Sequence record: SRR31156797_9135
Direction: 5' to 3' (one strand)
Length of the DNA stretch: 37,829 nt
The notes beneath the pieces were generated by a model. It saw only the letters and a list, made by a program, of their open reading frames with translations. It was not told the origin of the DNA and did no database searches. Positions 6,530-37,020 of this stretch are shown one piece after another (positions within the stretch are counted from its first letter, which is position 1; every line of letters starts with the position of its first letter). A program made the position numbers and the translations under genes.

Positions 6530-7375
6530 TTATTCGAAAACTTCCTCTAAGTCTTCCAGCTCCTCACTAAATTCGTCCATAGTATCTTCAAATTCATCCA
6601 TATAATACTCAAACTCCTCGTAATCATAGTATCTGTAACCATCATGGAACGCCCATCTATGGAAGAATATCCATCCGCCGAATTTGTCGGTAAATTCATC
6701 TATATCCTCTGAAAATTCTTCTGAATCAAAGTTTTCAGCGAACTCTTTGGCTGTAACCACACTGCCGATAATCGTAAAACCTAAGGAAACCAGTAAAACC
6801 ACTACCAGGAGAATCCATATTACTGGACTGATTTTAATACCCTTATACTCTTTCTTAATATATCTGTCTGGATCAGATGTCAGTCCATTCAGCATAGTCT
6901 TGTACCAACGCATAACATAAGGTATCAGTTTAATGATTCCAAGTACTATCAGTATCATAACCGATACTGCAAATACAGCACCTGCAATGACAACCATTAA
7001 TAGTGACTGACTGCTAAATACTGTACTCAATGCAATTGTAGCATATATAGTTGATACAGCCCCTAATACTAAGCCAATCAGAACACTAACAAGCCAAATA
7101 CAGCCTATACTTAGTGCAATAATACCTATAACATATGCAGCTGTGTTCACTCCATCATTTGCAGTACTCTGACTGTTAAACTGCATGTTTCTCTTTAGGT
7201 TTAATGCTATTTGCTTCGGATCTCCCAAAGCTTCGCATATCTCCTCTTCCGTACGCCCTTGTGCCAATCCGTCAATAAAATGCTTCTCATAATCAAGCAT
7301 TATTTCCCTCTTATCATTTTGAGTCATTCCCATTAGTGAATCCTTTAGGATTCTCAAAAATTCGCTTTTTTTCAT
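6530..7375 (-). CDS. DUF1700/HAAS-domain membrane protein
   Basis: 'MKKSEFL..L...L.....DY.KHF.DG...G.TEEEI...LGDP..IA' N-terminus, TM helices, downstream of a PadR gene. Confidence 0.8.
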   Translation of the reverse strand: MKKSEFLRILKDSLMGMTQNDKREIMLDYEKHFIDGLAQGRTEEEICEALGDPKQIALNLKRNMQFNSQSTANDGVNTAAYVIGIIALSIGCIWLVSVLIGLVLGAVSTIYATIALSTVFSSQSLLMVVIAGAVFAVSVMILIVLGIIKLIPYVMRWYKTMLNGLTSDPDRYIKKEYKGIKISPVIWILLVVVLLVSLGFTIIGSVVTAKEFAENFDSEEFSEDIDEFTDKFGGWIFFHRWAFHDGYRYYDYEEFEYYMDEFEDTMDEFSEELEDLEEVFE

Positions 7376-7438
7376 TTTTATTACCTTCCTTAATGAAATT
7401 AAATCTTACCTTTTTAATCAAACAACCGTAACTCACCA

Positions 7439-7753
7439 TCAACCAATACTATCAAGTAATTGGCTTACACCCTTGTTAAATTCTTTCCACTCTGTCATTA
7501 GTTCTACCTGCGCTTTGCTTCCAACATCTGTTATCCTGTAGTACTTTCTAGGCGGACCTTCGGTTGACTCCTTTAAATACGTTTCAAAATAGCCTTCCTT
7601 GTTCAGCCTGCGAAGCAGTGGATAAATGGTTCCTTCAGATACGGATATGGTCTCTGACAATCTGTTAAATAACTCGTAGCCATACATATCCTTAGCTTTA
7701 AGAAGTGATAGCACACATAGCTCCAATATTCCCTTTTTGAATTGAATATTCAT
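7439..7753 (-). CDS. PadR-family transcriptional regulator
   Basis: [39 protein letters not shown]. Confidence 0.95.
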
Positions 7754-8042: not shown

Positions 8043-9077
8043 TTAGTACTTATTAATTATAGAAACTATGTCCTCACCATATTTATTTACCTTGACTTCA
8101 CCGAACCCGTAAACATGATGTAATTGTTCTATAGTCCTTGGCATCTTTGATATCAAATCTTTCATTTGATTATCATTATAAATACAATAGGCTTTGATAT
8201 TCTCTTCTCGGCTCTTTATTAATCTATAGTACTTTAGCTCCTTATAAATACTTTTTTCTTCGACATTATCTCTAGGAGTGCTATTTATGAATATACCCCC
8301 CTTTTTTTTCAGATAATTTGTATTGTTTGTAATGAAATATTCTTTATATTTTTCTGTATAATCTTTTCTTTTTTCTTTGTGGTGGTTTAAATAAAATTGA
8401 GCCCATTCAAATGTTTCTTTTTTAGTAAAGGGTAAATCTTTCGAATCATTATATTTGCTTTTAATATGCTTAATAAGTTGGTCAGCACGGATAACCTGAT
8501 TTTTTATATCTTTCTTTGCATATTTTGCATTTAAAACAGTCTTGGAATTTGCTAAAACTACAATAGTTTTGTTTCCATCTTCAAAATATTTATTTATAAA
8601 ATGCTTCGCTATAATATTTTTGTCACCAATTCTTATTCTCTTTATTAAATCTAAATGGCGTTGGTTTTGTGTAATTGGAGAATAAATCCCCTCTTTTTTT
8701 ACTCTACCATTGTATCTCATGGTCCTTATAAAATCACCATTATTTCTTATTTCAATATTTCCGTATAGATTTTTGCATTCTATTATAAAACATATCTTTT
8801 TTGTAAACACCATATAATCTATCTGTGCATTTTGCTCATCATCGCTAAGATATATATCATGCAATATATACATCGGCATATAGCTATTTTGTAATTCAAA
8901 TGCAATTGTCTTTTCCCCAATTATTCCATACTCAAGTTTCCTAATATCATGTCTGATTTTTTTCTTTCCTTCAGTATTTAATAATGGTTCTAACTCTATA
9001 AGTTTTTCTAACAATTTCTCTGAATCACTGCTCTTCCTCAAGAATATTGGTTCGTTCCATTCATCAATTAATCCCAT
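8043..9077 (-). CDS. NERD (PD-(D/E)xK-like nuclease-related) domain protein with C-terminal HRDC domain
   Basis: G.IGE, QIDY, IIECKN, SPITQN.RH (NERD); 'LKYYRL..SREENIKAYCIYND.....L....P.T..QL..V.GFG..KV.KYGEDI' (HRDC). Confidence 0.88.
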   Translation of the reverse strand: MGLIDEWNEPIFLRKSSDSEKLLEKLIELEPLLNTEGKKKIRHDIRKLEYGIIGEKTIAFELQNSYMPMYILHDIYLSDDEQNAQIDYMVFTKKICFIIECKNLYGNIEIRNNGDFIRTMRYNGRVKKEGIYSPITQNQRHLDLIKRIRIGDKNIIAKHFINKYFEDGNKTIVVLANSKTVLNAKYAKKDIKNQVIRADQLIKHIKSKYNDSKDLPFTKKETFEWAQFYLNHHKEKRKDYTEKYKEYFITNNTNYLKKKGGIFINSTPRDNVEEKSIYKELKYYRLIKSREENIKAYCIYNDNQMKDLISKMPRTIEQLHHVYGFGEVKVNKYGEDIVSIINKY

Positions 9078-12154: not shown

Positions 12155-13015
12155 ATGTTTGGATACTTGAGACCTGAAGTCAACGAATTAAAAGTGCGTC
12201 AGCACACAAAATATAAAGCAATGTACTGCGGTCTATGCAAATCTATAGGCAAACACGCATCAAATACCACTAGGCTGACATTGCAATATGATATGGCATC
12301 TTTTGCATATATACTATCGGATATAATTGGTATGAAATCAGAAATCAAGTATGGAAGGTGTGTATTGCATCCTATAAAGCCTCGTCCAATGGTAATGGAT
12401 AATAAAGCACTTGAATATGCTGCAAATGTCAGCAGCCTTCTGGCACATAATAAACTAGATGATATGTGGCTGGATGAAAAAAAAATATATGCACCATTAG
12501 CAAAATTTATGATAAAATCAGGGTACAGGAAGTCCCTAAGTAATTCCGCTTACCTAAGCGATACTATTAATAAGCAGCTAAAACTGCTGCATGAATATGA
12601 GAATTCTGATGATATAAGCATGGATTACCCTGCCCTTACATCTGGTACAATCATGGAAGCAATTGCAAACAATGCACCTATTGAAGATAAAGTTACAAAA
12701 AGACTTCTGTCTGACATGATGAAAAACCTCGGTATGTGGTTATATTTAGCAGATGCTGTGGATGATTTGGAGTCGGATATCAAAAAGAAGAATTATAATC
12801 CTTTTATCAGAAATGGATGTATTGATAAAACAAAAGTAGATGCTGCTAAGGACATAATGATATTTATGCTTGCACAAGCTGCAAAGGCTAGAGATTTGAT
12901 GGAATTGAACGATAACGGAGAGTTTTTGGACAATATATTGTATATATCACTACCAAATACAACAAATAAGTTGTTTAACAAATATAATAAATTTATATCA
13001 GAAGCAAAGGAATAA
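12155..13015 (+). CDS. DUF5685-family protein
   Basis: MFGY.RP...ELK, YCGLC, RLTL.YD, RC.LHP, K..D...DE, DA.DDLE.D.KK.NYNP. Confidence 0.8.
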   Translation: MFGYLRPEVNELKVRQHTKYKAMYCGLCKSIGKHASNTTRLTLQYDMASFAYILSDIIGMKSEIKYGRCVLHPIKPRPMVMDNKALEYAANVSSLLAHNKLDDMWLDEKKIYAPLAKFMIKSGYRKSLSNSAYLSDTINKQLKLLHEYENSDDISMDYPALTSGTIMEAIANNAPIEDKVTKRLLSDMMKNLGMWLYLADAVDDLESDIKKKNYNPFIRNGCIDKTKVDAAKDIMIFMLAQAAKARDLMELNDNGEFLDNILYISLPNTTNKLFNKYNKFISEAKE

Positions 13016-13024
13016 AAGCAAGAA

Positions 13025-13639
13025 ATGAATCCATATAAAGTTTTAGGAGTAGATGAGAACGCTACACAGACAGAGATAAAAACCGCATACAGAAATTTAG
13101 TAAAAAAATATCATCCTGATAGATATATTGACAATCCTTTGTCAGATTTGGCACAGGAAAAAATGCGTGAAATAAACCAGGCTTATGACATGCTGGAAGG
13201 CAAATCTGCATCTTCTAGCAGTAATACATATTCTAATTCAAGTAATAGCGGAAGCTATTCATCAAGCAGCTCAAACGATACAATAACCTTTATGCATATT
13301 CGCCAACTGATTAATTCAAGGAGGATTGACGAAGCTTTCGCAGCTTTGCAAAAAATCAAAAATCATAATGCTGAGTGGAATTACTTAATGGCTACATGCT
13401 ATTCATGGAAAGGAATGTACCAGCAGGCAAGTCATTACTTTAATGTTGCTTGTCAGATGGATCCTTCTAATCTTGAGTATGCCAGAAGTGCCAACAATAT
13501 GCATAACACAAACAGACAATATACACGCCAGTCACAGTCTATGGGAGGCGGTGCATCTGCATGTGACATCTGTTCATGCCTACTTTGCTCAGACTGCTGC
13601 TGCGAATGCATGGGCGGAGACCTTATAGGCTGCTGCTAA
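13025..13639 (+). CDS. J-domain protein with TPR-like segment and Cys-rich C-terminus
   Basis: PYKVLGV...[12 protein letters not shown] (HPD intact); Ser-rich linker; AEWNYL...A...[31 protein letters not shown]. Confidence 0.9.
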
Positions 13640-14155
13640 ATGAAAACCAGCAAATTAACAGTACTTTCAATATTTACTGCTATACAGATAATTTTATTAA
13701 TTATATGTATGGCAATACCTACTATAAAGCTGACTTTGTTATGTGTAATTTCAGCTATAAATGGGTTATTGTACAGATCAGGCAGCAGAATATCGCACAT
13801 TCTTATTTCATATACAGCAGTATGTATCCTTGGATATATATTTATGCTAAATCCTACTGTATACATATCCTATGTATTTTTCTTTGGTTTGTATGGAATT
13901 ATACATCACCTGTTTAGGTTCAAATCTATTATATTTAAACAGATAATTCGCTGGACATTCTTTTCCGCAGCAATTTCTGCTATATATCAGATATTAACAC
14001 GTGTAATGGGAGTGACTTTTCAATTACCTATGTCTATATATATTTATGTTGCCATATTGATTGCAGGGTTTGTTATTTATCAGTATGCATATGAAATTCT
14101 AATCAGCTTAGTGCTTAGTCATCCTTATCTTAGGAAGTTGTTTTTCTCAAATTAA
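13640..14155 (+). CDS. Hypothetical multi-pass membrane protein
   Basis: About five to six hydrophobic segments; ATG directly after the previous stop. Confidence 0.7.
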   Translation: MKTSKLTVLSIFTAIQIILLIICMAIPTIKLTLLCVISAINGLLYRSGSRISHILISYTAVCILGYIFMLNPTVYISYVFFFGLYGIIHHLFRFKSIIFKQIIRWTFFSAAISAIYQILTRVMGVTFQLPMSIYIYVAILIAGFVIYQYAYEILISLVLSHPYLRKLFFSN

Positions 14156-14302: not shown

Positions 14303-16135
14303 ATGATAAAACGCAAGGATATCCGTGATATCGCAATAATCGCTCACGTTGACCATGGTAAAACCACCTTGGTTGATACTATGTTCAAGCAAAGCGGAAT
14401 GTTTAGAGATAATCAAGAGACAACAGAGCGTGCTATGGATTCAAATGACTTAGAAAGAGAGCGTGGAATAACAATACTTTCTAAGAACACATCCGTTATG
14501 TATAACGACATTCGTATAAATATAGTAGACACGCCGGGACACGCAGATTTCGGTGGTGAAGTAGAACGCATATTGAGTATGGTATCTGGTGCAATTGTTT
14601 TGGTTGACGCAGCTGAGGGACCAATGCCTCAGACCCGATTCGTATTAAACAAAGCTATGGCTCTGTCACTTCCGCTGATAATTGTAGTAAATAAAGCAGA
14701 CAAACCTGATGCAGACTGCCCAAAAGCAGTAGATGATACTTTAATGCTTCTAATGGAATTAGGTGCAGATGATGAGCAATTAGATTCACCTGTGATCTAT
14801 GCAAGCGGAAGAGACGGGATTTCTGGATTGACTCCTGACAATATGACTGAAACTCTGGAACCACTACTGGAAGCTATTGTAGAGCACATACCATGTCCTG
14901 TCGGCTATCTGGATGCTCCATTTAGAATGCAGGTTTCTACCATTGACCATTCAAATTATGTTGGTCGTATTGCAGTAGGCAGAATTGAAAGAGGCAGCAT
15001 AAAAATTGGAGACAGCGTAGACGTTGCACACATTGATCATGGTAAAGTTTCTAAACAAAGTACTAAAGTAACCAGTATTATGATGTTTGAGGGATTAACA
15101 AGAATACCAGTGGAATCTGCACAGATGGGTGACATTGTTGCAATCAGTGGAATTGATGGCATTGCAATCGGCGATACCATATGTAATCCAAGCGGATTAG
15201 AGCCACTCCCTGTTATAAAAGTATCTGAACCTACAGTATCTATGACTTTCTCCGTAAACAACGGTCCATTCGCAGGCAAAGAGGGAGACAAGGTTACATC
15301 TCGTCAGATTGGTGCCCGTCTGGAAAAAGAATCAAAAATCGATGTAGCTCTTCGTGTTGAAACTACTGATTCAGCGGACAGCTTCCGTGTCTGCGGAAGA
15401 GGTGAACTGCACCTGTCAATCCTAGTTGAAACTATGCGCCGTGAAGGCTACGAGTTTATGGTATCAAAGCCTGACATCATTCTTCGCATAGATGATGAAG
15501 GCAAAAAGGAGCCAATTGAATTGCTTGTAATTGATTCTCCTGAAGAATATTCAGGTGCTATAATGAACAATCTGAATATACGTAAAGCTCAAATGAAGGA
15601 TATGCAGGTAAAGGATGCTCGTGTTCGTCTGGAATTTATGATAGCTTCCCGTGCACTGTTTGGTTTCCGTGATGAACTGCTGACAGACACAAAAGGAGAA
15701 GCAATAATGAGCTCTGTATTTGATCATTATGGCCCTTGGATGGGCGATATTGCAAGAACCAGACCAGGAGTAATCGTTGCGACAGAACAAGGTCCTGCAA
15801 CTGCATACTCACTAAATACAGCTCAAAAAAGAGGACAGCTATTTATTGGTCCTGGTGAAAAAGTCTATGAAGGTATGATAATCGGTCTTTGCGGTAAGCC
15901 GGAGGATGTAGATGTGAATGTATGCAAAGGCAAAAAGCTTACAAATACACGTGCTTCAGGTAAAGATGATAGTATAATCTTAGCTAATCCTCGTTCAATG
16001 TCACTGGAGGAAAAACTATTATTTATCGAGGACGATGAACTCTTGGAGATTACGCCCCACTCACTGCGTTTGCGAAAGAGAATACTAAAAAAAGAGCTTC
16101 GACTAAAAGCAGTCTCAAGAGCAAAAAAAAATTAA
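14303..16135 (+). CDS. typA: Translational GTPase TypA/BipA
   Basis: [48 protein letters not shown]. Confidence 0.98.
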
Positions 16136-16142
16136 AGTAATT

Positions 16143-16170
16143 AAGAGATGTTAAATTAGCATCTCTTTTT
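16143..16170 (+). terminator. Intrinsic terminator after typA
   Basis: AAGAGATG...CATCTCTT followed by a T tract. Confidence 0.85.
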
Positions 16171-16172
16171 CT

Positions 16173-16201
16173 TTGACAATATACATGATTTTCACTATTA
16201 T
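16173..16201 (+). promoter_or_regulatory. sigma70 promoter upstream of the tandem element and dgkA
   Basis: TTGACA (16173-16178), 17 bp, TATTAT (16196-16201). Confidence 0.8.
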
Positions 16202-16216
16202 TAAATTATATTTATT

Positions 16217-16326
16217 AAGGAGCTTTTATACAATAAAGCGAAGCCCCTGCTAAAAAACGAACTACATAACGATGTTGTGGCTAGTTACTGGTTTGTATGA
16301 AATCTAGTGACTGGGCATACATTAAC
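16217..16326 (+). ncRNA. Putative structured non-coding element, copy 1 (family not recognised)
   Basis: AAGGAGCTTTTAT...AAAGCGAAGCCCC...GAACTA...long hairpin...CATACATTAAC; repeated 153 bp downstream. Confidence 0.5.
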
Positions 16327-16369
16327 AGTTTTGTGTATCACAATTATTTTCTTGCTATGTATATTGTAC

Positions 16370-16481
16370 AAGGAGCTTTTATAAAATAAAAGCGAAGCCC
16401 CAGCTGGAAAATGAACTAAACAGCGACGGTATGGTTAATAACTAATTTATTTTATATTCGAGTGATTAGACATACATTAAC
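16370..16481 (+). ncRNA. Putative structured non-coding element, copy 2
   Basis: Diverged copy of 16217-16326 with base-pair-preserving substitutions. Confidence 0.5.
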
Positions 16482-16534
16482 GATTATGTGAAAAAGTTTA
16501 TTTCTAAATAGGCACAACTAACAAGGATACAATT

Positions 16535-16885
16535 ATGAAACTTTCATCATTTAAACATGCTTTTAAAGGCATTTTATCAGCCCTTAAAACGGAAACTAAT
16601 TTTGTTGTAATGTTTATGGCATTCATTCTAGTTCTAATATTTAATATCGTATTAATGGTTACGCCAATTCACTGGATTGCAACTCTCATATGCTGCGGCA
16701 TGTGTTTAGGTTGTGAATTGATTAATTCTTCAATTGAAAAATGTGTGGATATGATAACCAAAGAAATCAAAAAAGAAGCAAAACTAGCAAAGGATTTTGC
16801 TGCTGGAGCTTCACTTTTATGTTCAATTGTTTCTGCTGTTATCGGGGCTATTATTTATCTGCCGTATATTTTTAAACTTTTCTAA
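16535..16885 (+). CDS. dgkA: Diacylglycerol/undecaprenol kinase family (DgkA-like)
   Basis: SFKHAFKGI...E.NF, ELINSSIE..VD, AKLAKD.AAGA; three TM segments. Confidence 0.88.
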   Translation: MKLSSFKHAFKGILSALKTETNFVVMFMAFILVLIFNIVLMVTPIHWIATLICCGMCLGCELINSSIEKCVDMITKEIKKEAKLAKDFAAGASLLCSIVSAVIGAIIYLPYIFKLF

Positions 16886-16904: not shown

Positions 16905-16936
16905 AAAAAAAATGGACAGCCCTTTACGGCCATCCA
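16905..16936 (-). terminator. Intrinsic terminator after the pilin gene
   Basis: Minus strand TGGATGGCC-GTAAAG-GGCTGTCCA followed by a T run. Confidence 0.8.
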
Positions 16937-16997
16937 CACTAGTTAAATCAATTCCTATATATTTCTAAGTTAGTAGTCTTAAATCAGATACTGATTA

Positions 16998-19990: not shown

Positions 19991-22375
19991 ATGAAATTTA
20001 CTAAAAGAAATGACACAATAGCAAATGATAAAATAGTCACTATGCTTTGCAGTGAGCTTAATATCTGCAGACTGACTTCTTCAATATTAGTTAACAGAGG
20101 ATATAATTCTCTAGATTCTGCAAAGAAATATCTAGGCTTGTCAGGCAGGGATTTCAGTAATCCATTTGATATCAGCAATATGCATGATGCTGTAGACAGG
20201 ATAAATGAGGCAATAGCAAATAAAGAGAATATAGTAATATATTCAGATTATGACACAGATGGTGTTTGTGCATGTAGTCTGCTGCTTAATGGCTTTGAAA
20301 TATCTGGATACAAAAATGTCTCATATTATACGCCAGAGAGAGAGGGCGAAGGATATGGACTAAATGCTGAGGCTGTTGGTAAATTGTCAAGAGAAAAATG
20401 CAGACTACTGATAACTGTTGACTGTGGAATATCCAATGTTGAGGAAATCAAGCTGGCAAAATTCCTAGGTATAGATGTAATCGTTACAGATCATCATAGC
20501 TGTCCCCCTACACTGCCAGAGTGCATAATAGTCAATCCAAAGCTATCAGGTGCAAAAGGGCAGGAATATCTCTGCGGTGCATCTGTCGCCATGAAATTAT
20601 CTCAGGCTGTATTCGGAGGCAACAGTGAAAACCGTGAGATGGAATTAGCAGCAATAGCAACTATTTCTGATATGGTACCCTTAGTTGGTGAAAACCGACA
20701 TATCGTTAATCTTGGTCTGGAGATACTAAATAACAGACCCAGTACAGCAATAGGCGAGTTAATCAAAATGGCTGTAGGAGACAAAGACATATCATCTGAA
20801 GATATTGGATACAAAATCGGACCGATAATTAATGCTGCAGGAAGAATAGCAACTGCGCATATCTGCATTGATTTATTTACTGGAAGAGCCGAAAGTATTA
20901 AAGAAAGTGTTGCTAAGCTGATTGATTACAACAATGAGAGAAAAGATATACAAAACGAAGTTTATAATCAGGCAAAGGAAAAAGTTCTTGATTTAGACCT
21001 TATAAACAATAATGGTATCATTCTCTACGATGAAAACTGGACTCTCGGAGTTGTGGGTATAGTAGCATCTAGACTGATGAATGATTATGGCAGGCCTATT
21101 GTAATGCTAACTAAATCCAATGAGCATATAAAGGGGTCTATCAGAAGCGTCGACGGGATAAATATATTTGATGTACTGTGTAATATAAGCGAACTATTTG
21201 AAAGCTTCGGCGGTCATTCCAAGGCAGCAGGAATCACATTAAAAAATGATGATGTTCAAGGGTTTGCGGGTAGATTCAACAGAGAGCTGGATGACTTTGA
21301 CAAGGCACTATTCGATAAGACTGTGTATTACGATATTGTATGTGAGCCAAAGGATATAAATTTAGATACAGTAAATGAAATTCGAATGATGGAACCCTTC
21401 GGGCAAGATAATCCCAGCGTTAGCCTTCTGGTTGAGGGAGCAAAAGCAATTGATTATACCGTAATGGGTAAGGAAAAAAATCATTACAGGGCTACTTTTG
21501 CAAAGGGTGCAGGCGGAGTAAAGGGAGTGGGGTTCTTTTCTTCTCTTGCCGATGGTGCAGCATCAGGGAATATGCTGTGTGATGTAGTACTATCACCTAG
21601 TATCAATAGTTTCAATGGACATACCAGCGTTCAGGGAATGATAAATTCAGTAAAATCCTATTATGAAAGTGAAGCAGATTATCTGGAATTTATTGACTGT
21701 ATAGCTCCAAAATTTATTGAGTCAAATATCGGAAACCAGAATTCACTCACAGATGATAAATATCTTGAAATAGAGACTACCAGCATAGATGAATTAAGAG
21801 AAATACTTCAGTCAACATCCTATCAAAATCTTGTTATTGCAGATAATATTAACATAGCAAGAGAACTGTATGCACAATTATCAAAAGAAGTTATGAACAA
21901 AACGCATATCTCAGTAGAAGATATTGATGTGCAGATAAATGGCGCAAATACTATACTTCTGGCACCTGATTACAGTCAACTGAAATCAAAGATTTATAAG
22001 AGAGTATATTACATAAACGTTAATGAAAATGTGAATATTATTAAAAAATTGTCACAATCATTGCATGATAATATACAAGTGGTTATAATGGGAGACATAA
22101 AACCTGCAGATACGAGGATAATTACCATTGAGAGGCTGAGGGAATTATACACTACAATAAAAGGACTCGGTGGCAATCTGACAGGAATCAACTATCTATT
22201 GGAAATGGGATATAAGCAAAAGATAGCAAAGTATGAGATGCTGATAGCCCATGAAGTATTCATTGAGTCAGGATTATTAATATTTGATAAAATCAAAAGT
22301 GAATATATTGTAAAGTCAAAGGCGGCTGTAGATGTGAAAGAAACTTTGGCGTTTAAAAAATTCATTATCGAGTGA
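19991..22375 (+). CDS. recJ: ssDNA-specific exonuclease RecJ
   Basis: DYDTDG, TVDCG, TDHH, SDMVPL, INAAGR, FGGH. Confidence 0.96.
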   Translation: MKFTKRNDTIANDKIVTMLCSELNICRLTSSILVNRGYNSLDSAKKYLGLSGRDFSNPFDISNMHDAVDRINEAIANKENIVIYSDYDTDGVCACSLLLNGFEISGYKNVSYYTPEREGEGYGLNAEAVGKLSREKCRLLITVDCGISNVEEIKLAKFLGIDVIVTDHHSCPPTLPECIIVNPKLSGAKGQEYLCGASVAMKLSQAVFGGNSENREMELAAIATISDMVPLVGENRHIVNLGLEILNNRPSTAIGELIKMAVGDKDISSEDIGYKIGPIINAAGRIATAHICIDLFTGRAESIKESVAKLIDYNNERKDIQNEVYNQAKEKVLDLDLINNNGIILYDENWTLGVVGIVASRLMNDYGRPIVMLTKSNEHIKGSIRSVDGINIFDVLCNISELFESFGGHSKAAGITLKNDDVQGFAGRFNRELDDFDKALFDKTVYYDIVCEPKDINLDTVNEIRMMEPFGQDNPSVSLLVEGAKAIDYTVMGKEKNHYRATFAKGAGGVKGVGFFSSLADGAASGNMLCDVVLSPSINSFNGHTSVQGMINSVKSYYESEADYLEFIDCIAPKFIESNIGNQNSLTDDKYLEIETTSIDELREILQSTSYQNLVIADNINIARELYAQLSKEVMNKTHISVEDIDVQINGANTILLAPDYSQLKSKIYKRVYYINVNENVNIIKKLSQSLHDNIQVVIMGDIKPADTRIITIERLRELYTTIKGLGGNLTGINYLLEMGYKQKIAKYEMLIAHEVFIESGLLIFDKIKSEYIVKSKAAVDVKETLAFKKFIIE

Positions 22376-30074: not shown

Positions 30075-31724
30075 TTATTTACTAATTACTTCTAGAAGTC
30101 GTACAGATTCTTGATTATCCATTTCTGCACCTCTCTCCAAGTATTCTATCGCTTTATCAAGGTTCTTTTCCACTCCATCACCATAGTAATACATTTCGCC
30201 AGCGTAGTAAAGAGCATATGCGTTGTCTTGTTCAGCAGCTTTCTCGTATAATTCGAGTGCTTTTTCATAGTTTTGCTCTATACCATAACCATTATAGTAC
30301 AGATATCCTAGCGCACATTGTGCCCAATGCACATTCTGTTCAGAAGCCAATGTATACCAAGTGGCAGCCTCTGTATAATTTTGTTCTACACCTAAACCAT
30401 CACGATATAAATCACCTAATCCGCACTGAGCAAATCCATTGTTCTGTTCTGCTGATTTTAGATACCAATTCAAAGCTTCTCCATAATTTTGTTCTACACC
30501 TTGTCCATATCTATATAAGTCAGCTAAACCACACTGTGCCCACTCCAAACCATGTTCTGCTGCTAATTTATACCATTTATACGCTTCCTCATAGTCCTGC
30601 TCTACACCCTGACCATAACGATATAAATCACCTAGTGCACAGTGAGCATATGGATTATGCTGCTCTTCTGACTTAAAATACCAATCTAGAGCTTTGCTGT
30701 AATCCTGCTCTACACCCTGGCCATAACGATATAAATCACCCAAAGCACATTGTGCCCATGCTTCGTCCTGCTCTGCTGCCAAAGTGTACCATTCAATAGC
30801 ATCGCTATAGCTCTGTTCCAAGCCATAACCATAGCGGTACATATCACCAATAGCAGCCTGTGCCTGTGGATTATCAGGTATTTCCTTTAATAATGTATAA
30901 GCTCTTAGATATTCAGTTTCATCCATTAGTGCTGTTGCTTCAGCTACTATTTCTTTCTCTTCAGATTCAGATAACACTGTAGTTTCAAAGGTAGCTTCTA
31001 TTTCAGTTGTAGGTGAAGGTGTAATCTCTACAGTTTCAACTGGTGTGGATGAAGCTGATGTTTCTTCTGGAGGTGCAGTCAGTTCAATTGATACACCATC
31101 TGTCTTATTAGTAAAAGGTGTACCAAATATATATGTGTAGAGACTCAGAAGTACTGTGAAAATCGATATTATAGCAAAAATAATAAGAGTGGATTTTTTG
31201 CTAACTTTCTTTGGCTTTGTTTCTAAACCGCCATATATTTCTTCCATTATTACTTCATTTATTTTGCTTCTTGTGTAAAACTTTACGGCATGAAAATCCT
31301 TTAACCTTTCGATGTCTTTCGGTAATTGAACTCCTTTAATTTCAACATCTTCTTCACACAGTATTACAATATTTTTATACAATTTAAGAGCTAAACGAAC
31401 TTCTTGTCTTATCCAGTCATTTTCATACTCTATGCATTTATCTAGAGCTCCTTTTGACAGAATGAAAACAAAATCCTTGCATGCTGCCATATTTAATCCT
31501 ATTTGCTTAGCAAATTTACCAGTATGCATAGTTTCATCTGCCATGAAAACAGAATAACCTTTTTTTGTGAGCAAATCATATGCCAATTTTGCATGCATTT
31601 TGCCACCGTCTGTTCTGTAAGAGATAAAGATATCACATTCTTCTTTCCACCTTCTTAACAATCCAATAATCAATCCAATAATAAAAGTACAAGTTGCGGT
31701 AATTAGTAACATAATTAGTTTCAT
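30075..31724 (-). CDS. Membrane protein: TM - TIR (SARM1-like) - TM - S/T/P/E linker - 7 Sel1 repeats
   Basis: DIFISYR, GYSVF, GKF, FVFILSKGALDKC, DWIRQEV, KNIV, LPKDI; TM about aa 3-23 and 180-201; Sel1 repeats aa 285-536. Confidence 0.9.
   Translation of the reverse strand: MKLIMLLITATCTFIIGLIIGLLRRWKEECDIFISYRTDGGKMHAKLAYDLLTKKGYSVFMADETMHTGKFAKQIGLNMAACKDFVFILSKGALDKCIEYENDWIRQEVRLALKLYKNIVILCEEDVEIKGVQLPKDIERLKDFHAVKFYTRSKINEVIMEEIYGGLETKPKKVSKKSTLIIFAIISIFTVLLSLYTYIFGTPFTNKTDGVSIELTAPPEETSASSTPVETVEITPSPTTEIEATFETTVLSESEEKEIVAEATALMDETEYLRAYTLLKEIPDNPQAQAAIGDMYRYGYGLEQSYSDAIEWYTLAAEQDEAWAQCALGDLYRYGQGVEQDYSKALDWYFKSEEQHNPYAHCALGDLYRYGQGVEQDYEEAYKWYKLAAEHGLEWAQCGLADLYRYGQGVEQNYGEALNWYLKSAEQNNGFAQCGLGDLYRDGLGVEQNYTEAATWYTLASEQNVHWAQCALGYLYYNGYGIEQNYEKALELYEKAAEQDNAYALYYAGEMYYYGDGVEKNLDKAIEYLERGAEMDNQESVRLLEVISK
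30117..30872 (-). repeat. Seven 108-bp (36-aa) Sel1-like repeats
   Basis: AQCALGDLYRYGQGVEQ.Y..A..WY..A.EQ consensus. Confidence 0.93.
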
Positions 31725-31778: not shown

Positions 31779-34700
31779 CTATACCTTTTTTATTGTCATA
31801 TTAACAGTAGTGCCATTGATGTTCCATTCCTTGCTATAACCTTCAATTGCACCTTTTAATATACTGTCACACAGTGTTTCGCTAGCTATAATATCATGGT
31901 TATTGTCAAAGATTTCCTCTGCACCAATGTATGATAGCATGATATGATCCGTAATGTCAAATTCTGCATCTTTTCGCATTGTTTGGATTTTCGATACAAG
32001 TTCACGTACGAAACCTTCTTCGATTAGTTCAGGTGTCAGGTTAGTATCAAGTACTACGGTAACATCTCTTTCAGATTGGCTTACGAAGCCTTCCTTTTGA
32101 GTTGTTTCAATTAGTACATCATCCTTAGCCAGTTCGATTTCTTGACCGTCTACTGTGATTTTACCCAATTCTCCTGCATTTACCTTTGCTACAAATTCGC
32201 TTCCGTCAACCTCCAGCAGTGCCTGTTTGATTTTTGGAAGAATTCTGCCGTACTTTGGCCCTAATGTTCTCATCTGAGGTTTGATGATGTAGTCAACAAA
32301 GCTGGCAGCATCATCAGTCATCACAACATCTTTAACGTTTAATTCGTCTAATACCAGTTCTTTATACTCATGAGATAATTCTAAGCCCTGTACATACAGC
32401 CTTGGTGTTGGCTGGCGATTCTTTACATTTGCTACATTACGGCACGCACGACCTAATGTTACCGCTGTTAGCACGCTAGCCATATTATCCTCTAAATCAG
32501 TATCTACCCTTGTATCATCAGCTACTGGATAATCAGACATATGAACAGATATAGGAGCATTTTCATTTACCTTTGCAACTAAGTTCTGATATATGCTCTC
32601 AGCCATAAACGGTATAAATGGTGCTGACAGCTTTGCCATCTCTACCAGACATGTATACAAAGTCATATACGCATTTATCTTGTCCTGAGTCATATCCTTT
32701 CCCCAGTATCTTTCACGACCACGGCGGACATACCAGTTGGACAATTCATCTACAAAGTCAGTCATTGCTCTGGCTGATTCAGTTATTTTGTACTGTTCCA
32801 TATTAGTATCAACAGTTTTTACTAAAGTATTTAATCGTGACAGTGCCCATTTGTCCATTACTGACAGCTTATCATAATCCAAAGTATATTTCGTAGGATC
32901 AAAATCATCAATATTAGCATACAGTACATAAAATGCATAGGTGTTCCATAATGTACCCATGAATTTACGCTGACCCTCTCCTACTGCTTCGCCGGAGAAT
33001 CTAGTTGGAAGCCATGGTGAAGAGCTGACATAGAAGTACCATCTGACAGCATCAGAGCCATTAACATTTAGTACATCCCAAGGGTTAACAACATTGCCTA
33101 TGTGCTTACTCATCTTTTTGCCGTCCATATCGCAGACATGACCAAGAACCAAGCAGTTCTTAAATGGTGCAACGTCAAAGAGCAAAGTAGATATTGCAAG
33201 CAATGTGTAGAACCATCCACGAGTCTGGTCAACAGCTTCAGAGATAAAGTTTGCTGGGAAGTTCTCCTCGAATTTATCCTTGTTCTCAAAGGGGTAGTGC
33301 CACTGTGCAAATGGCATTGAGCCACTGTCGTACCAGCAGTCGATAACTGCTGTTTCACGAGTCATTTTACCGGAACACTTTGGACAGTTTAGCTTAACTT
33401 CATCAATGAAAGGCTTATGCAATTCTATATCAGGGTTCACATTGTCACCCATTTTTATTAATTCTTCACGAGAACCTATTACATGAATCTCACCGCAGTC
33501 ATCACATATCCAGACAGGTAGTGGTGTGCCCCAATATCTCTCACGGGATACACCCCAGTCGATGATATTTTCCAGCCAGTTACCCATTCTGCCTTCACCG
33601 ATAGTTTCAGGTATCCAGTTAACGGAGCGGTTATTTTCAATGAGTTTATCCTTTACAGCTGTTGTCTTGATAAACCATGAGTGACGTGGATAGTACAAAA
33701 GCGGAGTATCACATCTCCAGCAGAATGGATAACTGTGTTCGTAGTTATCTGCTCTGTGAAGCTGTCCACGCTTTTCCAATTCAATTAGAATTGGTTTATC
33801 AGCATCCTTAACAAATGTATTTGGCCAGGGCGTAGTTTCTATAAATTCACCCTGCTCATTTACTATCTGGTTGAAGCTTAGCTGCTCTCTTTGCAGTATG
33901 CGAGCGTCATCGTCACCAAATGGAGCAATGTGAACAATACCTGTACCATCTGTCAATGTAACATAGTAGTCGCACACAACTCTTGGAGTTTGATTATCCG
34001 GTGTTGCATGAGCATTTGGGAACAGCACTTCGTACTCTGTTCCTTCTAATTCTTTACCTGTGAATTTCTCTATAGTTTCATATTCTTCGCCGATTATATC
34101 TTCTAGCAATGCAGTTGCCATGATATAAGTATTACCGTCTTCAGCTTTTACTTTTGAGTATTCACTGTCCGGGTTAACACAAAGTGCTTGGTTAGATGGC
34201 AGTGTCCATGGAGTAGTCGTCCATGCGATAATATATGCATCTTCATCTTTTACCTTGAAGCGAACCATAGCTGATTTTTCCTTGACATCCTCGTAGCCTT
34301 GTGCTACTTCGTGGGATGAAAGAGCAGTACCGCAGCGAGGACAGTAAGGAACAACTTTGAATCCTTTATACAACAGACCTTTGTCAGCAATAGTCTTTAG
34401 TGACCACCAGACACTCTCGATGTAATTATCTTCATAGGTAACATATGGGTTCTCCATATCTGCCCAGAATGCAACTCGGTCAGACATTTCCTCCCATTCG
34501 CCTTTATATTTCCAAACGCTTTCTTTACATTTAGCGATAAATGGCTCAACGCCGTATTTCTCGATTTGTGGTTTACCGTTTAAGCCTAATAATTTTTCCA
34601 CTTCTAATTCAACCGGCAGACCGTGAGTATCCCAGCCAGCTTTACGCAAGACCTTCCTGCCCTTCATTGTGTAGTAGCGAGGCAATAAGTCCTTGAATGC

Positions 34701-34889
34701 ACGAGTTTCTACGTGACCAATATGAGGCTTACCGTTTGCTGTCGGCGGACCGTCATAGAATGAATATACTTTGCAGCCTTCTCTGTTCTCAATTGACTTA
34801 TTGAAGACATCATTTTCCTTCCAGAACTTAAGTATTTCCTTTTCCCTATCTACAAAATTTAGACTGGTACTTACCTTATCATATATCAT
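31779..34889 (-). CDS. ileS: Isoleucine--tRNA ligase (IleRS2 type)
   Basis: DGPPTANGKPHIGH, GWDTHGLPVE, WTTTPWTLP, DQTRGWFY, KMSKH; 1036 aa; upstream T-box with AUC specifier. Confidence 0.97.
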   Translation of the reverse strand: MIYDKVSTSLNFVDREKEILKFWKENDVFNKSIENREGCKVYSFYDGPPTANGKPHIGHVETRAFKDLLPRYYTMKGRKVLRKAGWDTHGLPVELEVEKLLGLNGKPQIEKYGVEPFIAKCKESVWKYKGEWEEMSDRVAFWADMENPYVTYEDNYIESVWWSLKTIADKGLLYKGFKVVPYCPRCGTALSSHEVAQGYEDVKEKSAMVRFKVKDEDAYIIAWTTTPWTLPSNQALCVNPDSEYSKVKAEDGNTYIMATALLEDIIGEEYETIEKFTGKELEGTEYEVLFPNAHATPDNQTPRVVCDYYVTLTDGTGIVHIAPFGDDDARILQREQLSFNQIVNEQGEFIETTPWPNTFVKDADKPILIELEKRGQLHRADNYEHSYPFCWRCDTPLLYYPRHSWFIKTTAVKDKLIENNRSVNWIPETIGEGRMGNWLENIIDWGVSRERYWGTPLPVWICDDCGEIHVIGSREELIKMGDNVNPDIELHKPFIDEVKLNCPKCSGKMTRETAVIDCWYDSGSMPFAQWHYPFENKDKFEENFPANFISEAVDQTRGWFYTLLAISTLLFDVAPFKNCLVLGHVCDMDGKKMSKHIGNVVNPWDVLNVNGSDAVRWYFYVSSSPWLPTRFSGEAVGEGQRKFMGTLWNTYAFYVLYANIDDFDPTKYTLDYDKLSVMDKWALSRLNTLVKTVDTNMEQYKITESARAMTDFVDELSNWYVRRGRERYWGKDMTQDKINAYMTLYTCLVEMAKLSAPFIPFMAESIYQNLVAKVNENAPISVHMSDYPVADDTRVDTDLEDNMASVLTAVTLGRACRNVANVKNRQPTPRLYVQGLELSHEYKELVLDELNVKDVVMTDDAASFVDYIIKPQMRTLGPKYGRILPKIKQALLEVDGSEFVAKVNAGELGKITVDGQEIELAKDDVLIETTQKEGFVSQSERDVTVVLDTNLTPELIEEGFVRELVSKIQTMRKDAEFDITDHIMLSYIGAEEIFDNNHDIIASETLCDSILKGAIEGYSKEWNINGTTVNMTIKKV

Positions 34890-34920: not shown

Positions 34921-35160
34921 AAAAAACCTCTCTACTATCCACAGGATAATAAAGAGGACTCTATTACTATAACCACCTGCGCTGCCCGAATATCGGATAA
35001 CCCTGCCTTGGTAACGGCGACAAACCCGTCTTCGCTTACTAAATCTCTTGTTAGGCGAAAAAGCTAAAAGGTGATAATTATTAAATCTTGGTACAGACGT
35101 TTCAGCTGATGTCTGCTCTCTTTGACCAATAGAAATCAATAATATTGTCCTTTATCGTTG
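34921..35160 (-). promoter_or_regulatory. T-box leader (Ile, AUC specifier) with terminator; atypical antiterminator
   Basis: Minus strand: AGAGA and GCUGAAA stem I motifs, AUC at 35075-35073, stem II, CCGUUA, GGUGGU, terminator CCUCUUUAUUAUCC/GGAUAGUAGAGAGG plus U6. Confidence 0.85.
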
Positions 35161-35168
35161 CTAGAAAC

Positions 35169-36808: not shown

Positions 36809-36824
36809 ATTTTCAACAATTTAA

Positions 36825-37020
36825 TAGTGCGTTGACTAGAGAAAATGTCGGCATTAATGGGTTATAGCGAGCTGCGGATGGTGTGAGTGCAGTACTTAGT
36901 TAGGCTGGTTGGGCACTCTATGAGCACATAGGTTTTATTAAGTGGGAGCAATTTGCTTCAAAAAGGGTGGAACCGCGAAAGTCAAGTCTTTCGTCCCTTT
37001 GTAGGGATGCAGGGCTTTTT
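36825..37020 (+). promoter_or_regulatory. T-box riboswitch (Gly, GGC specifier)
   Basis: AGCGA and GGUGUGAG stem I motifs, GGC at 36912-36914, T-box AAGGGTGGAACCGCG at 36963-36977, CGTCCC antiterminator arm, terminator plus T tract. Confidence 0.93.

Follow-up and report, generated by a model that had tools for sequence, protein, structure and literature searches.

Results

A diverged tandem duplication between typA and dgkA

Between typA and dgkA, the stretch of DNA analysed here (37,829 nt, hereafter the window) carries a sequence of about 110 nt twice in succession. A first-pass annotation took the two copies for a structured RNA with compensatory base changes, acting either as tandem sensing modules upstream of a lipid kinase gene or as a pair of independent sRNAs. 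The locus raises the question of whether the repeat is a regulatory RNA, and of which kind, or the remains of a duplication. The 399-nt spacer between the two genes is laid out as a terminator-like hairpin, a promoter-like site and then the two units, as follows:

14303-16135, + strand: typA (TIGR01394, 864.5 bits), with its stop codon at 16135
16143-16167, + strand: terminator-like hairpin with T run, 11 pairs and a T-rich tail, 8 nt past the typA stop
16173-16201, + strand: promoter-like site of the sigma-70 type, TTGACA-17-TATTAT, 11 of 12 matches
16217-16326, + strand: unit 1 core, within homology at 16207-16335; covariance model score 127.9 bits
16327-16369, + strand: inter-unit spacer; two weak promoter-like sites, 16322-16350 and 16337-16365, match at 9 of 12 positions each
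16370-16481, + strand: unit 2 core, within homology at 16360-16490; covariance model score 142.9 bits
16523-16527, + strand: Shine-Dalgarno (SD) sequence of dgkA, AAGGA, lying one period beyond unit 2's AAGGAG
16535-16885, + strand: dgkA, 116 aa (PF01219, E 9.6e-29, profile positions 1-102 of 102)

The typA terminator and the TTGACA-17-TATTAT promoter that had been placed ahead of unit 1 were both found as sites, and the start of dgkA lies 53 nt after unit 2, in agreement with the earlier estimate of about 50 bp. The predicted transcription start, near 16208, precedes unit 1 by some 9 nt. The product of dgkA is a prokaryotic diacylglycerol/undecaprenol kinase family protein.

MAFFT, a repeat finder and TRF were concordant in recovering two direct tandem copies at the positions first proposed, with a start-to-start spacing of 153-155 nt by MAFFT and the repeat finder; TRF reported 16217-16505 with a period of 154, 1.9 copies, 73% matches and a score of 322. 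The cores are identical in 86 of 112 columns and differ by 24 substitutions (15 transitions, 9 transversions) and 2 indels, and over the whole period 115 of 165 columns are identical. The blocks described earlier as invariant do not differ between the copies. A covariance model of the two cores matched unit 2 and unit 1 alone in the 37.8 kb window, the next match (16.4 bits) being the antisense of unit 2's own hairpin. Since the aligners agree and the model matches just these two copies in the window, we regard the repeat as real and local. As judged from its sequence, the element is an old local tandem duplication with a period of about 154 nt, now some 70-77% identical. A test for a MITE or other dispersed repeat gave the same picture within the 37.8 kb window, with two adjacent copies only and unit ends that are not inverted repeats. 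We also considered whether the repeat extends into the promoter, so as to give three promoter modules, and rejected this, as the similarity of the upstream region and the two spacers was not significant (P=0.43, 0.87 and 0.46).

Several other features of the window were recorded. An inverted repeat (16171-16186 and 16357-16372, 14 of 16 positions complementary) brackets unit 1; by a rough estimate it is at about chance level. Its first arm overlaps the -35 box of the + strand promoter-like site and its second arm a minus-strand promoter-like site (16370-16343, 9 of 12 matches). Downstream, a GC-rich hairpin with an A run on one side (16912-16937), reported as a minus-strand terminator and possibly bidirectional, lies between the convergent dgkA and pilin genes. 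Upstream of typA, at 12155-14155 on the + strand, close-packed genes on one strand encode a DUF5685 protein (286 aa), a J domain-only protein (204 aa), the J domain being the N-terminus of DnaJ, and a 171-aa protein for which no family match was found. On the minus strand (6530-7753 and 8043-9077), a PadR-family regulator adjoins a HAAS-domain protein, and this pair is followed by a protein with NERD and HRDC domains. A second set of DNA repeats, four copies at 108-nt spacing and 60-71% identity (30314-30853), corresponds to Sel1 units within a 549-aa minus-strand protein (30075-31724) that has an N-terminal TIR_2 domain and seven Sel1 repeats and could be a defence or signalling protein.

The duplicated stretch is non-coding and folds better on the + strand

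The first-pass annotation held that the copies share no ORF and that their substitutions show no codon-position bias, and our analysis agrees on both counts. No ORF of at least 8 aa with a start codon at homologous positions was found in the two units, and the substitutions fall 8/6/10 by codon phase. A small ORF in the long hairpin was considered on the strength of a synonymous-looking run in one frame and was rejected, unit 2 having no start codon there; a type I toxin-antitoxin or small-protein locus was likewise rejected, as no small ORF with a start is common to both copies. Nor does the repeat appear to be a decayed copy of the 5' coding end of dgkA: local alignment gave a score of 23 against shuffle means of 22.8 and 23.7, with 223 and 287 of 500 shuffles scoring as high and ranks of 357th and 439th among 1238 window tiles.

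Folding favours the + strand, as had been proposed, and both the promoter-like site and dgkA lie on this strand too. On it, unit 1 folds at -30.0 kcal/mol, against -18.8 for shuffled sequences (sd 3.3; z -3.37), and a single shuffle in 200 was as stable; unit 2 folds at -18.7 kcal/mol (z -1.61), a stability equalled by 13 of 200 shuffles, whereas the minus-strand folds reach z -0.59 and -0.55. In addition, the long stem of unit 1 contains several G-U pairs, each of which would read as an A-C mismatch on the minus strand. Taken as a whole, the 353-nt leader shows no unusual stability (z -1.16). The duplicated stretch is non-coding and foldable on the + strand, and lies in the dgkA leader.

Anatomy of a unit

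Each unit has a 5' domain, a short stem and a long hairpin, the parts of which are:

16217-16248, + strand: unit 1 5' domain, with AAGGAG, a near-palindromic AU-rich hairpin and the C-rich GAAGCCCC
16249-16270, + strand: short stem of unit 1 beneath an A-rich loop of 14 nt; 3 of 4 pairs form, the fourth being a C-A mismatch
16271-16323, + strand: unit 1 long hairpin, 21 pairs, several of them G-U; 3' domain -23.2 kcal/mol
16293-16302, + strand: unit 1 apical loop, 10 bp complementary to 16224-16233, -8.2 kcal/mol
16429-16475, + strand: unit 2 long hairpin, 15 pairs, with a larger loop and weaker; 3' domain -8.0 kcal/mol
16446-16456, + strand: unit 2 apical loop, 11 perfect bp with 16380-16390, -7.1 kcal/mol

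The units open with an SD-like AAGGAG (16217-16222 and 16370-16375) that has no ATG, GTG or TTG within the next 13 nt. The 5' domain has two mutually exclusive pairings. In the first, GCUUUUAU and AUAAAAGC form the AU-rich hairpin, and in the second, AGG.GCUUU pairs with GAAGC.CCU such that the C-rich tract masks AAGGAG. The masked form is the better one in unit 1 (-6.7 kcal/mol) and the hairpin in unit 2 (-6.1 vs -5.4 kcal/mol), and the alternatives lie no further apart than about 1 kcal/mol in unit 2 and 1.4-1.8 kcal/mol in unit 1. Over the folding ensemble, AAGGAG is paired more often than not at both sites, with P(unpaired) of 0.38 and 0.22.

Two of the helices described by the first-pass annotation thus hold in full for unit 2 but in part for unit 1. 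All 8 pairs of the 5' hairpin form in unit 2, but unit 1 lacks one A and forms 7 of them; the short stem is a perfect 4 bp in unit 2, but carries the C-A mismatch in unit 1. The A-rich loop that this stem closes is identical between units at 11 of its 14 positions, and the common 3' block CAUACAUUAAC lies partly within the base of the long hairpin.

The apical loop of each long hairpin is complementary to the 5' segment of its own unit. For unit 1 this pairing gave P=0.019 with the loop shuffled and P=0.045 with the 5' segment shuffled, and for unit 2 P=0.024 and 0.025 against shuffles, values that apply to a complementarity picked post hoc from 19 inverted repeats in AU-rich sequences. Cross-unit combinations of loop and 5' segment reach only -3.4 and -3.6 kcal/mol. 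Divergence between the copies is greatest in the 3' loop, and the fact that complementarity within each unit is kept regardless hints that loop and 5' segment co-evolve, a suggestive pattern in which the pairing register is shifted by three columns between the units.

Compensatory changes and the possibility of a neutral relic

The compensatory changes that first drew attention to the element exist as a pattern, but they do not go beyond chance. In the consensus structure of 25 pairs, 47 of 49 cells are paired; 18 pairs are invariant, 3 carry a one-sided and 2 a two-sided change, and the other 2 deviate solely through an unpaired cell. Column shuffles reached the observed pairing values in 115 of 500 cases. 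We also simulated mutation by taking the structure from one copy and placing the 17 substitutions of the 3' domain, 12 of them transitions, at random. From unit 1 to unit 2, 16 of 21 pairs are kept against a null of 14.7 (sd 1.6; P=0.31), with 2 double changes where 0.85 are expected (P=0.20); from unit 2 to unit 1, 13 of 15 pairs survive (P=0.06), with 1 double change (P=0.56). With only two sequences, the compensatory changes are not beyond chance. Transition-biased divergence turns G-C into A-U and G-U often enough to account for the apparent compensation, and the covariation put forward by the first-pass annotation does not stand as an argument for a structured RNA.

These results fit a repeat that arose by slippage or unequal exchange on a short AAGGA repeat and has been decaying since without function, unit 1 keeping a hairpin that unit 2 loses. 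AAGGA is present at all three period boundaries, and the copies of AAGGAG at the unit boundaries could represent no more than the microhomology that gave rise to the duplication. The weak fold of unit 2, the much lower stability of its 3' domain, the lack of an expression platform (see below) and the identical blocks, which are no longer than chance (longest identical run 14, P=0.23), point the same way. Against a relic, unit 1 is significantly stable relative to its shuffles, and the most diverged 3' loop remains complementary to the 5' segment of its own unit and not across copies. The differences are also borderline clustered: 33 columns, which make up the 5' part of the unit, carry 3 differences, the minimum for any window of that size, where about 10 are expected (P=0.051). 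Gene conversion between the tandem copies could be the source of the identical blocks. In bacteria, moreover, tandem repeats tend toward loss by deletion unless they are retained. On balance, we consider a functionless relic unlikely, though it deserves serious consideration. If the repeat is only a decaying duplication, its lesson is one of caution, namely that two paralogous copies whose substitutions are biased towards transitions yield "compensatory" changes by chance at about the rate observed here.

Known RNA families and relatives

Consistent with the earlier statement that the element matches no familiar riboswitch or ribozyme consensus, a scan of the whole window with Rfam 15 at the gathering score gave 0 matches, and in E-value mode (E up to 10) the best match within 16100-16560 was to an unrelated, unstructured lncRNA model (E 1.3, 18.7 bits; gathering score 50). 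A control for the sensitivity of the E-value scan is its recovery of two T-box leaders in the window, both below the Rfam gathering score of 93 and hence missed by the gathering-score scan. One (36823-37001, + strand, 73.7 bits, E 2.7e-14) lies upstream of a class II aminoacyl-tRNA synthetase gene (37095 onward), and the other (34939-35167, minus strand, 59.3 bits, E 1.4e-10) upstream of a class I synthetase gene (31779-34889, 1036 aa, DUF5915).

A blastn search against plasmids and phages gave no match to the element. We then scanned species-representative genomes (596 Gb, two strands) for the two conserved 5' blocks separated by a gap of 12-24 nt. This pattern occurred at 46 loci in unrelated phyla, none of them with two matches, where about 56 are expected by chance over the 13 gap lengths. 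At these loci blastn of the element matched at most 17-20 nt, around the pattern, and the covariance model gave no more than 20 bits; we take all 46 of 46 to be chance matches. The scanned genomes evidently do not include that of the source organism. For relatives whose TypA is 84% identical, failure to match an exact 19-nt pattern carries little information. Ten TypA proteins, one of them named 'MAG: Eubacteriales bacterium', come closest at 79-84% identity, and the next group reaches at most 71%, which places the window in a sparsely sampled Clostridia lineage. Exact TypA, DgkA (16535-16885) and RecJ (19991-22375) are absent from a collection of 15 billion proteins, and the source organism appears to be unsampled at the species level.

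Discussion

Sensing aptamers, small RNAs and operators

Two ways in which a leader of this kind might be read out were looked for downstream of the promoter-like site. No + strand terminator-like site was found in 16202-16534. Ribosome-binding site (RBS) sequestration by the leader was rejected as well: its pairing with the dgkA initiation region (-9.1 kcal/mol) is no better than with a shuffled initiation region (mean -13.1 kcal/mol, P=0.96), and the dgkA SD is partly open in the ensemble. With neither a terminator nor an RBS helix, the usual riboswitch read-outs and the 3' ends typical of sRNAs are both absent.

This bears directly on the proposal that the units are tandem sensing aptamers, whether a riboswitch or a protein-binding module, in which three-stem folds held by a loop-loop contact control dgkA. 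The anatomy of the units is what makes the idea attractive: three stems accompany the identical unpaired blocks GAAGCCCC and CAUACAUUAAC and the largely conserved A-rich loop, the loop complementarity is unit-specific, the 5' domain has two alternative pairings, and a long leader follows a strong promoter-like site. Tandem riboswitch arrangements are themselves known, being described in passages of PMC6429828. Besides the lack of any read-out, however, no helix encloses the units, covariation is within chance, no Rfam match appears at E up to 10 while the T-boxes of the same window reach E 1e-10 to 1e-14, and the genome pattern scan, with its 46 chance loci, yielded no homologues. No paper linking dgkA to a riboswitch was found by title or abstract opening, RNA-level control of dgkA did not turn up in the literature searched, and dgkA, diacylglycerol and typA are mentioned nowhere in PMC6429828. 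We consider tandem aptamers improbable. A more specific version is a long shot: the units might belong to an undescribed class of regulatory RNA from uncultured Clostridia, compact three-stem modules, locked where the apical loop of the long hairpin touches the 5' loop, which would sense a metabolite or protein of lipid-carrier or membrane-lipid turnover and control the diacylglycerol/undecaprenol kinase in tandem without a classical terminator platform.

The chance that the units are instead two sibling trans-acting sRNAs, each transcribed from its own + strand promoter and having its seed in either the C-rich tract or the A-rich loop, seems to us slim. Tandem sibling sRNAs with C-rich seeds occur in Firmicutes, a single-stranded C-rich tract lies beside the hairpins in each unit, and promoter-like sites precede both units (11 of 12 matches for unit 1, and 9 of 12 for unit 2 at the two sites overlapping the inter-unit spacer). 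Yet neither unit is followed by an intrinsic terminator, the number of promoter-like sites in the region overall equals the shuffle expectation (6 vs a mean of 5.9), and the region upstream of unit 1 is not significantly similar to the spacer (P=0.43). There is also one C-rich tract per unit, and it is able to pair with the unit's own AAGGAG.

Very improbable, finally, is a DNA-level element in which the 8+8 palindrome GCTTTTAT-N3-ATAAAAGC of each unit serves as the operator for a dimeric regulator that acts as a roadblock downstream of the promoter, within a duplicated operator region. In its favour, conservation is highest in this near-perfect palindrome, whose centres lie about 22 and 175 nt past the predicted start, and the 14-of-16 inverted repeat flanks unit 1. 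Against it, the right arm in unit 1 is short of one base with the half-site spacing shifted, conservation runs beyond the palindrome, the G-U pairs and strand-asymmetric folding point to RNA, and no regulator gene adjoins the element.

A proposed cis-acting leader of dgkA

The explanation we tentatively prefer, at somewhat less than an even chance, is that the repeat forms a lineage-specific cis-acting leader of the dgkA mRNA, in which AAGGAG and the hairpins suggest a role as a stabiliser or in ribosome loading over that of a classical riboswitch. Transcription would start from the near-consensus promoter that follows the typA terminator, the site being observed and its activity predicted, and would pass both units into dgkA, as no terminator-like site intervenes between promoter and gene. 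Each unit would offer an AAGGAG without a start codon, which the 5' stem either exposes or pairs with the C-rich GAAGCCCC. It would also offer, according to the computed folds, the small stem with the A-rich loop and the long hairpin, the latter with an apical loop that complements the 5' segment. By analogy with known stabilisers, an SD-like site that binds ribosomes may then act with stable 5'-proximal hairpins to set the half-life of the dgkA mRNA and its loading with ribosomes. Sensing of a ligand or protein is possible in addition, though no expression platform indicates it.

The cis-acting reading is supported by the layout of the locus, from terminator through promoter-like site, units and SD to dgkA with no intervening terminator, by + strand folding, the lack of a shared ORF and an AAGGAG without a start codon, and by the near-equal alternative 5' pairings and unit-specific loop pairing. 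It is weakened by pair retention within the neutral expectation and the borderline clustering of differences (P=0.05), by the unremarkable stability of the leader as a whole (z -1.16) and AAGGAG sites that are mostly paired (0.38 and 0.22), by the alternative origin of AAGGAG as duplication microhomology and the post hoc choice of a loop complementarity whose registers differ, and by the lack of a homologue showing conservation among plasmids, phages and the genomes of the pattern scan. If the units are functional, they would represent an undescribed structured leader controlling a lipid/undecaprenol kinase in a poorly sampled Clostridia lineage.

Comparison with known systems

Within the same window, the T-box leaders of this organism resemble the dgkA element in being long, structured and placed upstream of single genes. 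They differ in being recognised by Rfam, where the best the dgkA element attains is E 1.3, and in preceding aminoacyl-tRNA synthetase genes. Tandem riboswitch aptamers likewise place two similar structured modules in series in one leader, but the dgkA element has no Rfam riboswitch match and no expression platform. Like the sibling sRNAs of Firmicutes, the units are tandem copies, about 110-150 nt in length, that include a single-stranded tract rich in C; unlike those sRNAs, they have no terminators, one C-rich tract each and a weak promoter for unit 2, and that sRNA class is represented in Rfam whereas the dgkA units have no match there.

The 5' stabiliser elements of Gram-positive bacteria comprise SD-like 'STAB-SD' sequences and 5'-proximal stem-loops. 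Both dgkA units contain an SD-complementary 5' UTR sequence with no following start codon, as a STAB-SD does. SD-like stabilisers exist as a class (Agaisse and Lereclus 1996, as listed among the references of PMC7509114), and RNase J1 is blocked by ribosomes that initiate at a strong SD, according to the abstract of PMC5737220. The likeness to the dgkA element lies in a start-codon-less AAGGAG near the predicted 5' end that is followed by a stem-loop, with no terminator before the gene. The dgkA module departs from the Gram-positive stabilisers in being duplicated and about 110 nt long, in adding two further stems and in having an AAGGAG that can be masked by a C-rich tract.
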